64,000 bases of DNA from an uncultured Clostridia bacterium (GCA_947629555.1 CANRED010000002.1:3071-67070); one strand, 5' to 3'. Positions 3,371 through 59,478 are shown, counted from the first letter of the stretch. Numbers and translations are program-made. The notes: generated by a model not told the origin, from the sequence alone.

Positions 3371-3428
3371 TGTAGGGAACAGACCAACGTCGTTCCGTTT
3401 GAGGTGTCACCGAAGGTGACGGAGGGTT
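3371..3428 (+). repeat. REP-like unit A plus module 2 hairpin
   Basis: TGTAGGGAACAGACCAACGTCGTTCCGTT (3371-3399) is identical to 59324-59352. It is followed by GTCACCgaaGGTGAC (3406-3420) and GAGGGTT. Confidence 0.85.
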
Positions 3429-3454
3429 CTGATTTAAAATAAAGGAGAAATTTT

Positions 3455-3796
3455 ATGGAAGATTGTATATTTTGTAAAATAATAAACAAACAAATACCAT
3501 CACAAATAGTATATGAAGATGATGAAATAATAGCATTTAAAGATATAGAACCAGTTGCACCAGTTCATGTACTTGTAGTACCAAAAAAACACATAGCATC
3601 AGTATTAGAAATATCAGAAGAAGATAAAATTCTAATAGGAAAAATATATACTGTAATACAAAAATTAGCAATAGAGTTAGGCATAGATAAAGATGGATTT
3701 AGGGTAGTAACAAATTGTGGAGAAAATGCAGGACAAACAGTAAAGCATATTCATTTTCATTTATTAGGAGGAAAAAAATTAGCATTAACAATGTAA
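3455..3796 (+). CDS. HIT (histidine triad) family nucleotide hydrolase
   Basis: The HIHFHLLGG histidine-triad motif lies near the C-terminus, and the 113-aa size is typical. Confidence 0.85.
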
Positions 3797-3862
3797 AATC
3801 TAGACTAAAATTCATAAATATGTTATAATAAATATATATGGATTTCTAGGAGGTGTTAAAAC

Positions 3863-4552
3863 ATGTTTGATAGAAAATATGGAAAAGTTTTAACAGTATT
3901 CTTAATAATTGCAATAATAGCAATAATTGCTTTATTAGGTTTTTGGTTATATGATAATATAAAAGGAGATAAAATAAAAAAAGATGCAGAAGCTGGAATA
4001 GAAGAGTTTAATAAAAACAATGGAATTACAGCAGATGCAACACCAGACGTTGAAGAGTCTCCAGATGTAGATGATAGTGAAATACCAGACATAGTAGAAA
4101 CATCACCAATACCTTCTATAAATACTGGAAGTGGTTCAAGTCAAAATAAATATGGTGGATTTGTAATGTTAGGATATATTGAAATACCAAGAAACGATGT
4201 AAAAGTGCCAATATTAGAAAAGGCTACTCCAAAATCACTTCAAATAGCAGTAGGAACTATATATCCAGCACATCCAGAATTAAATGAACCTGGAAATGTA
4301 GTAATTGCAGGTCACAATTATAGAAATAAATTATTCTTTTCAAACAATAAAAAATTAGAAAATGGGGACAAAATATACATAACTGATGCAAGTGGAAGAA
4401 AATTAACTTATGAGGTATATGATAAATTTGAAGCAACTCCTGAAGATACATCTTTTTATTTAAGAGATACAAATGGAGTCCCAGAAATTACATTAACTAC
4501 TTGTACACAAGATAGTAGTAAAAGAATGATAATTTTAGCAAAAGCCCAATAA
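3863..4552 (+). CDS. sortase family transpeptidase, N-terminally membrane anchored
   Basis: An N-terminal TM helix is followed by VIAGHNYRN (catalytic His region) and the ITLTTCTQ (TLxTC) catalytic Cys motif. Confidence 0.8.
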   Translation: MFDRKYGKVLTVFLIIAIIAIIALLGFWLYDNIKGDKIKKDAEAGIEEFNKNNGITADATPDVEESPDVDDSEIPDIVETSPIPSINTGSGSSQNKYGGFVMLGYIEIPRNDVKVPILEKATPKSLQIAVGTIYPAHPELNEPGNVVIAGHNYRNKLFFSNNKKLENGDKIYITDASGRKLTYEVYDKFEATPEDTSFYLRDTNGVPEITLTTCTQDSSKRMIILAKAQ

Positions 4553-4557
4553 AATGC

Positions 4558-4586
4558 TTGACAAATTAAATAATATAGATTAAAAT
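4558..4586 (+). promoter_or_regulatory. sigma-A type promoter upstream of the tRNA pair
   Basis: TTGACA (4558-4563), 17-nt spacer, TAAAAT (4581-4586). Confidence 0.55.
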
Positions 4587-4588
4587 AT

Positions 4589-4623
4589 AAATTACTGTTT
4601 GATTTTAAATCAAACAGTAATTT
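4589..4623. repeat. 35-nt near-perfect palindrome between the promoter and tRNA-His
   Basis: AAATTACTGTTTGATTT (4589-4605) pairs with AAATCAAACAGTAATTT (4607-4623), leaving one central base. Confidence 0.8.
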
Positions 4624-4626
4624 AAT

Positions 4627-4704
4627 GGTGGATGTAGCTCAGTTGGTTAGAGCGCTAGTTTGTGGCACTAGAGGCCGTGGGTTCGAGTCCCATCTTCCAC
4701 CCCA
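4627..4704 (+). tRNA. tRNA-His (GTG)
   Basis: Manual cloverleaf: an extra G-1 faces discriminator C, D arm GCTC/GAGC, anticodon loop TTGTGGC, T loop TTCGAGT, CCA encoded. There is one T-T mismatch in the acceptor stem. Confidence 0.85.
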
Positions 4705-57349: not shown

Positions 57350-57429
57350 AAAATATATTGCAAAAAGAAAATTAATGCTATATTATAATAAAGTATAATA
57401 TATTTTGTAAATATACTAAGGAGGAAAAA

Positions 57430-58143
57430 ATGAATAAACAAACAAATGAAAATGAATTAAACTGTACAAATATAGAAAATCAAGGAACAGTACCAGAAAA
57501 TATAGAAAATGCATTTAGTGATTTAATATCAGAATATTTTGAAAATGATACAACACAAAATGCTGATAATATACAAACAGGAACAGTACTAGATTGGGAT
57601 TCAGTAGCAAATGGGCAATTATTTACAAACAATCAAACTCAAGAAAATGCACAAAATGTTGTAACAAATAATAATAATAATAATGTATTATATAATAACC
57701 TTGAAACAATAAATGAAAAAATTACACCGACCCAAGAAGTACAAAATAATGGTATAAATGGAATATATAAAAATTTACAATCAGCTACAGATAATATTAA
57801 TTATCAAAATAATGTAAATAATATGTTATACAACGAAATAGGAAATGTAAATACACAATCAACAAATGGTAACCCTTATGGAGTAGTACCAGTAGAAGAA
57901 AATTTATTAACAGGAGTAGATAATAGTACAAATAATGCAGAGACTATAAATTCAACTAATACACAAGGAACAGATTTTAAATTAACACAAGCAAATCTAC
58001 CTGTTAAAATAGGATTCTGGACAAAAGTAAGAAACTTCTTTATGGCGGATTCTAAAATATTATATTCAGTGAACCAAACACAGACTAATACCGGATTATG
58101 GAACAAAGTACAAAATTTCTTTTCATTTGGAAAAAATAAATAA
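57430..58143 (+). CDS. Asn/Gln/Thr-rich low-complexity protein with two C-terminal WxKVxNFF motifs
   Basis: Good RBS (AAGGAGG). No signal peptide or TM segment visible. Contains an NNNNNN run. GFWTKVRNFF and GLWNKVQNFF lie near the C-terminus. Confidence 0.6.
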   Translation: MNKQTNENELNCTNIENQGTVPENIENAFSDLISEYFENDTTQNADNIQTGTVLDWDSVANGQLFTNNQTQENAQNVVTNNNNNNVLYNNLETINEKITPTQEVQNNGINGIYKNLQSATDNINYQNNVNNMLYNEIGNVNTQSTNGNPYGVVPVEENLLTGVDNSTNNAETINSTNTQGTDFKLTQANLPVKIGFWTKVRNFFMADSKILYSVNQTQTNTGLWNKVQNFFSFGKNK

Positions 58144-58164
58144 TTAAAACTATATAAATATTTA

Positions 58165-58194
58165 AAAAGAATACTTGCCAAGTATTCTTTTTTG
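58165..58194 (+). terminator. rho-independent terminator
   Basis: AAAAGAATACTT pairs with AAGTATTCTTTT around loop GCC, and the right arm runs straight into further T residues. Confidence 0.75.
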
Positions 58195-58268
58195 GTATAA
58201 AATAGCAATGTCTGGAAAAGACTAATATGCAAAGATACAAAAATAATGTATCAGAATGGAGGATAAAA

Positions 58269-59273
58269 ATGTCAATAAGAATAGGAATTAATGGATTCGG
58301 AAGAATAGGAAACTTAACATTTCAAGCAGCTTTAGAGAAGGGAGATGTAGAAGTCGTTGCAATAAATGATCCATTTATAACAGCAGATTATATGGCTTAC
58401 ATGGTAAAATATGATACTGTTCATGGAAGATTTAATGGAGAAGTAAAGTTTGAAGATGGTAAATTAATGGTTAATGGAAAAGAAATAAAAGTATATAATG
58501 AAATGGAACCAAAGAATATTCCTTGGGGTGCAGATGGAGTAGATTATGTTTTAGAATGTTCAGGAGTATTTACAACAATAGAAAAAGCAAGTGCACACTT
58601 AGAAGGTGGAGCAAAGAAAGTAATAATAAGTGCACCTTCAAAAGATGCTCCAATGTTTGTTATGGGAGTTAATAATGATAAATATGATCCAAGTATGAAT
58701 GTTATTTCTAATGCATCATGTACAACAAACTGCTTAGCACCACTTGCAAAAATAATAAACGATAATTTCGGAATAAAAGATGGATTAATGACAACTGTTC
58801 ACTCTACAACAGCTACACAAAAAACTGTTGATGGTGCATCTAAAAAAGATTGGAGAGGTGGCCGTGCAGCAGCTGCAAACATAATACCATCATCAACAGG
58901 AGCTGCAAAAGCAGTTGGAAAAGTAATACCAGAATTAAATGGAAAATTAACAGGAATGGCATTTAGAGTACCAACAATAGATGTATCAGTTGTTGATTTA
59001 ACATGTAACTTAGAAAAACCAGCAACTTATGAAGAAATATGTGCTGCAGTTAAAAAAGCATCAGAAAACGAATTAAAAGGTATAGTAGAATACGTAGATG
59101 AAGATGTTGTATCATCAGATTTTATACATGATAACCATACATCAATATTCGATGCAAAAGCAGGAATTGCATTAACAGATACTTTCGTTAAACTAGTAGC
59201 TTGGTACGACAACGAATGGGGATATTCAAACAAATTAGTAGATTTAGCAAGATATATATCTACAAAAAATTAA
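58269..59273 (+). CDS. gap: glyceraldehyde-3-phosphate dehydrogenase
   Basis: [11 protein letters not shown] and the [12 protein letters not shown] active site. ATG 58269 follows GGAGGA. Confidence 0.95.
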
Positions 59274-59323
59274 AACTACAAGAAAGTATAAAAATCTAAC
59301 ACACCCATAAATGCAGTAAAATT

Positions 59324-59352
59324 TGTAGGGAACAGACCAACGTCGTTCCGTT
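59324..59352 (+). repeat. REP-like unit J
   Basis: TGTAGGGAACAGACCAACGTCGTTCCGTT, identical to 3371-3399. Confidence 0.9.
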
Positions 59353-59453
59353 AAAAATATATCATACGAAAAATAGATTTATCTATGGTTAAATCTACTA
59401 GAAATCGGGTGCTAAATTTATATTTTCTATATGTTACAAATAGGTTTTTAATT

Positions 59454-59478
59454 GGGGCGGGGCTTGACTCCGCTTACA
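59454..59478 (-). repeat. REP-like variant K in inverted orientation
   Basis: The minus strand reads TGTAAGCGGAGtcaagCCCCGCCCC, that is GTAA plus the stem GCGGAG/CCCCGC (one G-T wobble). Confidence 0.55.

Follow-up and report, generated by a model that had tools for sequence, protein, structure and literature searches.

Dispersed GTAG-footed hairpin repeats in an extremely AT-rich clostridial genome, and their probable RAYT-type partner

Introduction

The 64,000-nt stretch of an uncultured Clostridia bacterium analysed here (GCA_947629555.1, CANRED010000002.1:3071-67070; the window) is housekeeping DNA of 28% GC, with an AlaRS-like gene, HIT and sortase genes, tRNAs, tig, clpP, clpX, cmk, bipA, Spo0A, carA/carB, gap and pgk. 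The presence of Spo0A identifies the host as an endospore-forming Firmicute. The + strand carries 50 of the 53 genes, and every 4-kb bin shows positive GC skew. Scattered between these genes are short GC-rich hairpins with GTAG at the 5´ foot, which an earlier reading made from the DNA letters only (the sequence-only reading) had likened to repetitive extragenic palindromic (REP) elements and their REP-associated tyrosine transposases (RAYTs).

E. coli and Pseudomonas provide the best-known REP/RAYT systems. To our knowledge, work on these systems has been confined almost entirely to Proteobacteria, and we know of no settled account of how REPs spread. We consider it likely that the window units are REP elements belonging to a family served by a Y1 HUH nuclease of the RAYT/TnpAREP type, closest to TnpAREP subclass 2.4 / RAYT group 4. 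This would extend REP/RAYT systems to spore-forming, very AT-rich gut Clostridia.

Results

Thirteen units lie between genes and include identical dispersed copies

All 13 units that had been described as exclusively intergenic do lie in spacers. They occupy nine of the 36 intergenic spacers of the window, within the ~9% of it that is noncoding, at a density of about one REP per 5 kb (Table 1). Nine units are clean, each consisting of (T)GTAG followed by a GC-rich hairpin, and four are decayed or weak. The nine have an exact GTAG and an intact hairpin. Of the other four, 6747 and 59454 have a GTAA head, 25081 has no GTAG, and 15276 has an exact GTAG in front of a collapsed stem. Units are 24-29 nt long with stems of 7-11 bp and a GG/CC base, and T occupies position -1 in 10 of 11 window units. 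Folded as single-stranded DNA, the nine units have energies of -4.7 to -13.3 kcal/mol (-7.9 to -13.3 for those with intact stems and -4.7 to -5.5 for those with a bulge), and the weak or decayed units have the values given in Table 1. The architecture is that of a REP: a short, imperfect GC-rich palindrome that carries GTAG at its 5´ foot and is scattered through intergenic DNA.

Two sets of base-identical copies had been pointed out, and their positions were confirmed. The 27-mer GTAGGGAACGACGCCCTCGTCGTTCCG is found on the + strand at 12620, 15348 and 46397, and the 29-mer TGTAGGGAACAGACCAACGTCGTTCCGTT on the same strand at 3371 and 59324; neither was matched in 100 shuffles. The top strand of this GGAAC type reads GTAG-GGAACGACGCCCTCGTCGTTCC-G. 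A degenerate search for GTAGGGAAC..GTCGTTCC, tolerating 2+2 substitutions, returned eight + strand copies (3372, 4956, 6747, 12620, 15348, 25079, 46397 and 59325), the null mean for both strands being 0.5. The GTAG foot is also found on other stems, at 4857 (GGGGTCGCTT), 13983 (GGGGTGGCA) and 15307 (GGAGTCGATG), and stems unlike the GGAAC type among the window units include GGGGTCGC, GGGGTGGC and GGAGTCGATG.

An unbiased list of perfect GC-rich hairpins across the window has 15 members, six of them with GTAG as the 5´ foot, and beyond these 15 there are bulged copies with GTAG (3372, 4956 and 59325) or GTAA (6747). The background of the GTAG tetranucleotide is 308 per 64 kb. The units are unevenly spread: they are concentrated at 3-15 kb, and the region from ~26000 to 45000, with tightly packed + strand genes and a GC content of 23-27%, has zero REPs.

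The same REP recurs in other genomes, mainly of Clostridia

The motif is not confined to the window. A scan of 185,579 species genomes (596 Gb) with the pattern GTAGGGAACN{7,12}GTCGTTCC gave at least 115 loci, chiefly in metagenome-assembled Clostridia (more than 100 Clostridia genome bins). The main taxa among the matches listed are Oscillospiraceae, Acutalibacteraceae, Ruminococcus, Syntrophomonadaceae, Peptococcaceae, Eubacteriaceae and Christensenellaceae, with a minority from Anaerolineae, Ignavibacteriaceae, Chitinispirillales, Patescibacteria and Poribacteria. By our own arithmetic a 17-base pattern should have a few hundred chance matches in 596 Gb, so the match count in itself proves nothing. 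The identity of these loci as REPs instead follows from completion of the stem and from linkage to RAYT genes. Four matches were rejected as non-palindromic chance hits (L055, L094, L100 and L107); the stem-completing GAC, which the pattern leaves unspecified, is present in nearly all the other matches listed.

The extended consensus over 135 distinct copies from other genomes is Y(-1) GTAG GGAACG..CGTTCC G(+1), with Y in 124 and G in 98 of the 135. The window copies conform to it, and the conserved flanking Y and G suggest a preferred target. The GTAG prefix, whose loss on wider alignment had been named as the outcome that would leave only unrelated terminators, is conserved: a search for the hairpin without regard to its foot found GTAG on exactly one side in 3/3 cases in the window, 5/5 in loci fetched by protein (see below) and 136/143 in pattern loci.

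Many of the listed matches are inverted pairs (L021, L041, L056 and L119, for example), arrays, or "double-foot" units of the form GTAG..CTAC (L111, L079 and L040). One locus, L079 2050-2373, has six direct GGAAC-type REPs at a spacing of 55-64 nt with near-identical "spacers", the last being a double-foot REP. Such a tandem REP+linker array could be mistaken for a CRISPR array. A CRISPR array was itself rejected as an identity for the repeats, given that the window units are kilobases apart, that the cluster at 15.3 kb consists of three different repeats with a shared linker, and that the L079 "spacers" are repeated.

RAYT-like genes elsewhere are flanked by, and contain, the REP

Among the 115 REP loci listed, eight have RAYT-like open reading frames (ORFs), as shown by searches with E. 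coli RayT (tblastn) and with clostridial homologues (phmmer), and in five of these (L026, L117, L073, L051 and L086) the ORF contains a REP or has one no more than ~100 nt away. Single-copy RAYT-like Y1/HUH genes have the REP GTAGGGAACG..CGTTCC both 20-125 nt upstream and, in frame, within the coding sequence. The same arrangement is seen in five contigs fetched by RAYT protein, independently of the DNA pattern (L123, L125, L126, L128 and L129). All five have a - strand REP inside the ORF, and four have a + strand REP 20-125 nt upstream of the start, the REP of L123 being at the stop codon instead. Altogether, the cognate RAYT is flanked by the same REP in these five and in L026, L117 and L073, and an in-gene - strand REP is found in the five together with L026, L093 and L117. 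Translated in frame, the inverted REP gives xRSRPFPT in 120 of the 334 homologues and the forward REP gives VGNGLDRS in 26 of them; many RAYT genes therefore bear copies of their own substrate (for example P0103, P0023 and L125 10285-10308). The genes stand singly among housekeeping genes, as in carB-RAYT-pyrK and recO-RAYT-mutS2.

Several comparisons point to a RAYT rather than an IS200-type protein. The NCBIfam model NF047646 (REP_Tyr_transpos) matches the homologues at E 6e-19 and beats the IS200 model, and their only sequence match in the PDB is 4ER8 (TnpAREP bound to REP). The AlphaFold (AF2) model, with a mean confidence (pLDDT) of 85, has 4ER8 as its top fold match at a template-modelling (TM) score of 0.61, IS200/IS608 transposases coming next. 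Invariant with E. coli RayT are HUH, WQ, D/H, R, Y and N (H81, H83, Q124, Y144 and N148). In the E. coli enzyme the WQ..DH..R stretch provides the GTAG contacts (Quentin 2018, PMC6006769). The homologues stop ~10 aa past NPLKW. At E<=1e-10, the clade comprises 9,022 cluster representatives, most of them annotated simply as "transposase" by NCBI and some as "RayT" by the Joint Genome Institute (JGI).

A model built from RAYT-linked REPs recovers window copies

We trained a covariance model (R1) on 14 REPs linked to RAYT genes, all from outside the window and its species, and ran it with filters off. It recovers six window copies, with E values from 4.5e-8 for the three copies of the 27-mer to 1.2e-5 for 4956, and gives E 0.03, 0.11 and 2.1 for the decayed units 25079, 15276 and 6747. 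With partner genes present in other genomes and a model derived from their REPs recognizing copies in the window, the proposal of a REP/RAYT-like system is supported. In 968 kb of related AT-rich contigs, R1 found one locus at E<0.01. This sole strong match among relatives, L172 5561-5587, scores on both strands and is probably a double-foot REP.

Copies are missing from a close relative

The sequence-only reading had suggested looking for presence or absence of individual copies in related strains. The most informative relative is a congener (L213; ClpX 93% identical, 27.7% GC) that is syntenic gene for gene with window positions 1-18.5 kb, some of the spacers being alignable, and that indicates that the gene order of the window is ancestral. 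The congener's alaS/HIT, bipA/methyltransferase, cmpB/metGL and metGL/HI0933 spacers and the spacer downstream of tRNA-Gln contain no REP, and the whole 15.3-kb REP cluster is absent, so that the intact window copies in this region are all missing from the congener. The tig/clpP spacer of the congener holds a decayed GGAAC hairpin without GTAG, in the same place as the decayed unit 6747 of the window, which suggests that this insertion is old. Since the congener has no REPs at the corresponding sites, at least nine insertions are recent and specific to the lineage of the window, a view that the base-identical copies also fit. Gene content also differs from the congener in two places: L213 carries an additional Bax1-I gene (16138-16785), upstream of the gene for Met-gamma-lyase, and from 21126 onward its spo0A is immediately followed by a phage-type integrase, the corresponding place in the window being taken by tRNA-Gly and a transglutaminase-like gene on the - strand.

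A wider set of relatives consisted of 80 metagenome contigs (946 kb, 25-37% GC, mostly human gut) with Tig 68-75% identical. They contain eight strict GTAG hairpins and no GGAAC-type hairpins. Across 50 relatives the tig/clpP spacer is absent, or has an AT-rich terminator or unrelated REP types.

Short-read contigs of the same species, 99.97-100% identical, terminate inside the 15.3-kb cluster, as is expected of a multicopy repeat. Strain-variant contigs from two sequencing runs (L002 and L004) match the window up to 15346 and diverge inside the REP linker, the outcome of either a true rearrangement or a false join made through the repeat during assembly. Past the breakpoint (L002 7399-11212, and likewise L004) lie genes for a PMT-family glycosyltransferase and ACPS.

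Units are arranged head to tail and share one polarity

Within the window, units occur either singly or in direct clusters (4857/4956 and 15276/15307/15348). The comparison with bacterial interspersed mosaic elements (BIMEs) did not hold in its usual sense, as these direct singlets and tandems include no alternating pairs; the window mosaic is BIME-like, but head-to-tail instead of alternating. The module GTTGGAGCTGTCACCGAAGGTGACTGAGGGTT directly follows the REPs at 3372 and 15348, and the REP-linker-AT hairpin-REP composite of 4857/4956 recurs in the low-GC bins L011 (linker at 7212-7266) and L033 (linker at ~716-800).

For 12 of the 13 window units the GTAG strand is the G-rich strand, and one unit is on the - strand. 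It had been stated that all but one are co-oriented with the flanking genes. This is correct for most units but not at 13983, which has divergent genes on either side, or at 4857/4956, where the genes converge. Elsewhere, in nine loci of three REP-rich low-GC bins, all 31 REPs point in one direction within each locus, and this direction equals the sign of the GC skew in seven of the nine, where the skew is clear. In L011 the genuine - strand genes TraX and YtxC have a + strand REP between them, and another such REP lies at the 5´ end of one more - strand gene, so REP polarity does not simply follow local transcription. Taking the G-rich, gene-rich strand as leading, the GTAG top strand would lie on the lagging-strand template, the strand on which IS608 and ISDra2 excise and insert (Ton-Hoang 2012, PMC3333891).

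Discussion

We suggest that the window units are non-autonomous single-stranded DNA repeats, each consisting of a GC-rich hairpin whose foot carries (Y)GTAG as a 5´ guide tetranucleotide, and that the proteins encoded beside the same REP in other genomes represent their likely partner. Several observations weigh against this interpretation. R1 scores the units with other stems poorly (E 0.6 for 4857 and 6.4 for 13983), and 15307 and 59454 are missing from its matches at E<=10; the stems of these four differ from the RAYT-linked GGAAC type. The window has no inverted REP pairs of the kind that make up BIMEs and REPINs (paired REP elements) and that characterise the systems studied by experiment, the sole possible partner, 59454, being weak. 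The RAYT homologues reach 68 bits, below the NCBIfam equivalog cut-off of 80, and are near or below the Pfam Y1_Tnp cut-off. Finally, the replication-strand reading draws on GC skew, gene-strand bias and a few informative cases.

The absence of a RAYT from the window also has to be counted on that side, given that the family could be orphaned here. As the sequence-only reading had stated, no RAYT is found in the 64 kb by tblastn with E. coli RayT or by phmmer with two clostridial RAYTs against ORFs >=40 aa, and the syntenic contigs of relatives have none. Three AT-rich RAYT candidates (P0055, P0103 and P0028) were considered as this species' own and discarded, their loci belonging to other organisms. 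The REPs could share the REP/RAYT origin and have lost their RAYT in this genome, surviving as immobile relics that are retained where they form useful RNA stem-loops. The visible decay of 6747, 15276, 25079 and 59454 would suit such relics, and REP-bearing genomes without tnpAREP have been reported (Quentin 2018, PMC6006769). Nevertheless, 27-mers identical in three places and 29-mers identical in two, despite strong AT pressure, as well as at least nine insertions since the split from the congener, argue for very recent activity. We regard orphaned REPs as unlikely, though the best of the alternatives, and expect a RAYT to be encoded elsewhere in this genome.

We see very little prospect that the units are commonplace intrinsic terminators, or hairpins that stabilise mRNA, having arisen in place and sharing only a resemblance to one another. 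Many units do lie just past stop codons, and those at 4857 and 12620 have T tails and look like terminators, but the remaining 11 of the 13 have no T tract, and a GC hairpin directly followed by a T tract, the mark of an intrinsic terminator, is not what the family as a whole displays. The other terminator-like hairpins of the window (9129, 8830, 5019, 775, 18304 and 54398) are AT-rich. Nor would terminators that arose in place be expected to show identical 27- and 29-mers beside unrelated genes, a conserved GTAG foot with Y at -1 and G at +1, a location inside the adjacent pairs carA-carB and gap-pgk, or absence from the corresponding sites of the congener.

Equally improbable, in our judgement, is a cis-regulatory RNA or protein-binding DNA motif that has no connection with transposition. 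Several units are 13-60 nt upstream of start codons, and some are followed by conserved second modules, as such a motif might be. However, the units are just 25 nt long, their neighbouring genes are functionally unrelated, and the same sequence occurs in and beside RAYT genes. A comparison with Rfam, which had been proposed as a check, gave no match to the repeat units at the gathering score or even at E<=1; elsewhere in the window Rfam matched only tRNAs and, spuriously, a (plant) miRNA on a palindrome at 54398. The least probable alternative is a miniature transposable element of the MITE type that has terminal inverted repeats and target-site duplication and is moved by a DDE transposase. 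Such an element would also be short, dispersed, intergenic and palindromic, but here the palindrome is the entire element, only one side bears the unpaired GTAG that sets polarity, direct duplications are not seen at the flanks, and the associated gene elsewhere encodes a Y1 HUH protein, not a DDE enzyme.

If the units are REPs, they have clear counterparts in the GTAG superfamily described for E. coli, Pseudomonas and Stenotrophomonas (Di Nocera 2013, PMC3733652), which are likewise GC-rich imperfect palindromes of 20-30 nt with a 5´ GTAG, dispersed in many copies between genes, with several hairpin subtypes per genome and some members doubling as terminators. They differ in that the host is a spore-forming Clostridium of 28% GC, that the window units are same-direction singlets and tandems with no alternating pairs, and that the clostridial REP sequence is common to many families and a few phyla. 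The Di Nocera catalogue covers Proteobacteria, Cyanobacteria, Chloroflexi and the Planctomycetes-Verrucomicrobia-Chlamydiae (PVC) group and does not list Firmicutes (PMC3733652).

The RAYT homologues appear closest to TnpAREP subclass 2.4 (PMC6006769) / RAYT group 4 (PMC5581495), an assignment made by shared hallmarks. We favour it because they share with that group a REP in frame and a variable loop between HUH and Y, the lack of a C-terminal extension, and double-foot REPs; a patchy distribution over phyla and retention of the GTAG-contacting W, Q, D/E, H and R are further likenesses. The abundance of 16-mers given by Bertels for group 4 is modest, ~14 occurrences (PMC5581495), in contrast to the REP density of the window. 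The papers on subclass 2.4 and group 4 stress Cyanobacteria, Bacteroidetes, Chlorobia and Caldilineae, and where Quentin 2018 and Bertels 2017 mention Clostridia, it is solely in connection with IS200 or group 1 (PMC6006769, PMC5581495). The part of the Quentin 2018 supplement available as text has no mention of Firmicutes (PMC6006769). RepRanger 2025 includes Bacillota genomes in a table only, and a full-text literature search for RAYT, TnpAREP or REPIN in Clostridia, Firmicutes or Bacillota returned nothing further. The impression that no such family had been described in this lineage holds for the REP catalogues consulted but not for the transposase, whose clade matches the published subclass 2.4 / group 4 and includes proteins that JGI already names RayT.

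With E. coli RayT and its BIMEs (Ton-Hoang 2012, PMC3333891; 4ER8), the clostridial homologues share the fold, the catalytic motifs and the organization as a gene present once, among housekeeping genes and beside its own REPs, reminiscent of a REPtron. Their identity to E. coli RayT is ~18-26%, they score below the NCBIfam equivalog cut-off, and the C-terminal tail of the E. coli protein is missing; E. coli REPs, moreover, form alternating BIME arrays. The IS200/IS605 elements IS608 and ISDra2 are similar in that a Y1 HUH enzyme acts on folded single strands with a guide tetranucleotide 5´ of the hairpin and prefers the lagging-strand template, matching REP polarity. In contrast to these elements, the window units have a single hairpin, no left and right ends and no transposase, and the RAYT-like gene is single-copy and fits the RAYT model better than the IS200 model. 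The uncommon features of the present family are therefore its extremely AT-rich host, one REP across many families, and singlets with fixed polarity.

The catalysis, replication coupling and RNA-level effects that we infer for the window REPs could be connected as follows. A RAYT would bind the folded top strand once it is single-stranded, likeliest on the lagging-strand template at replication forks, as shown for IS608 and ISDra2, and would recognise the hairpin and GTAG, cleave and rejoin. Copies would in this way enter intergenic DNA, either as lone units or as tandem REP+linker repeats. Because they are placed between genes that usually form operons, REPs in the carA/carB, gap/pgk and tig/clpP junctions are probably transcribed, and in such housekeeping operons, co-transcribed stem-loops could serve as terminators, as the two with T tails might, or as barriers to 3´ exonucleases.

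A more inclusive model, which we offer tentatively and would not be surprised to see fail, is that there is one widely shared GGAACG-stem REP, ranging over many Clostridia families, Chloroflexota, Ignavibacteriota and Patescibacteria, that is kept nearly constant by an in-frame master copy in its own RAYT gene. Enzyme and substrate might then be inherited or transferred as a unit, with spread in AT-rich gut Clostridia as strand-specific singlets on the lagging-strand template instead of REPIN doublets, and a burst of at least nine insertions within 15 kb in this species after its split from the congener. If this is true, the species would be a natural system for catching ongoing RAYT-driven REP dissemination. 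One REP shared across many families contradicts the usual picture of species-specific REPs, the strict strand polarity fits single-strand transposition at the replication fork, and very recent insertions are visible against a close relative. On the practical side, these REPs break short-read metagenome assemblies of this species and can be mistaken for terminators or small RNAs.

Feature catalogue and minor observations

Table 1. Repeat units and associated linker modules of the window. Coordinates are window positions; E values are those of covariance model R1, energies are for folding, and "congener" is L213.
Feature	Coordinates	Strand	Remarks
REP, GGAAC subfamily, bulged A	3372..3396	+	same as copy at 59325; spacer between AlaRS-like gene and HIT; E 1e-6; -5.5 kcal/mol; congener spacer without REP
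Linker module with small hairpin GTCACCGAAGGTGAC	3397..3428	+	93% identity to 15374-15405; repeat family D5; in no other fetched loci except L002/L004
REP, other stem, GTAG-GGGTCGCTT...	4857..4885	+	11-bp stem; -13.3 kcal/mol; followed by TTTTTT; downstream of tRNA-Gln; terminator-like
AT-rich, AGTGAAT-rich linker ending in hairpin AAAATTTGC..GCAAATTTT	4886..4955	+	connects direct REPs 4857 and 4956
REP, GGAAC subfamily, bulged	4956..4982	+	E 1.2e-5
Decayed REP, GTAA head, mismatched stem	6747..6774	+	tig/clpP spacer; -2.2 kcal/mol; E 2.1
REP, GGAAC subfamily, perfect 9-bp stem	12620..12645	+	bipA/methyltransferase spacer; T-rich tail, terminator-like; exact 27-mer; E 4.5e-8; absent in congener
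REP, stem GGGGTGGCA	13983..14007	+	divergent genes on either side; 9-bp stem, 5´ GTAG; -10.4 kcal/mol; absent in congener
Decayed GGAAC-type unit	15276..15301	+	GTAG overlaps TAG stop of upstream Met-gamma-lyase gene; E 0.11; -1.0 kcal/mol
REP, stem GGAGTCGATG	15307..15332	+	second in direct triple cluster; -7.9 kcal/mol, z -5.5
REP, GGAAC subfamily	15348..15373	+	third in cluster; linker start GTTGGAGCTGTCAC on both sides; exact 27-mer; E 4.5e-8
Linker module, second copy of 3397-3428	15374..15405	+	family D5, 93%; hairpin of 15375 copy -5.0 kcal/mol
Decayed GGAAC hairpin without GTAG	25079..25105	+	E 0.034; -6.6 kcal/mol (listed as 25081 in folding)
REP, GGAAC subfamily	46397..46422	+	63-nt carA/carB spacer; exact 27-mer; E 4.5e-8
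REP, GGAAC subfamily, bulged	59325..59349	+	gap/pgk spacer; exact 29-mer; E 1e-6
Weak candidate inverted unit, GTAAG + GCGGAG..CCCCGC	59454..59478	-	-3.4 kcal/mol; not found by covariance model; membership in the REP family doubtful

At the site that corresponds to the unit at 4857, the congener has an AT-rich terminator instead of a REP. Versions of the linkers occur outside the window: L002 7385-7420 (also L004) is a decayed form of the GTCACCGAAGGTGAC hairpin module with six GC-to-AT changes, and the AGTGAAT-rich linker with its AAAATTTGC..GCAAATTTT hairpin is seen also at L115.

Two spacers of the window have prominent hairpins of other kinds. The palindrome at 54398-54455 has a perfect 27-bp stem (CATTTTGGGGACGTGTTAAAAAAACATC TAGA GATG...) and lies in a 212-nt spacer between two + strand genes. 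It has no GTAG and was excluded as a REP; it may be a bidirectional terminator or another repeat. The clpX/cmk spacer (8810-9248, 439 nt) contains the AT-rich terminator-like hairpins at 8830 and 9129 together with a called 53-aa ORF, and the same spacer of the congener is 189 nt.

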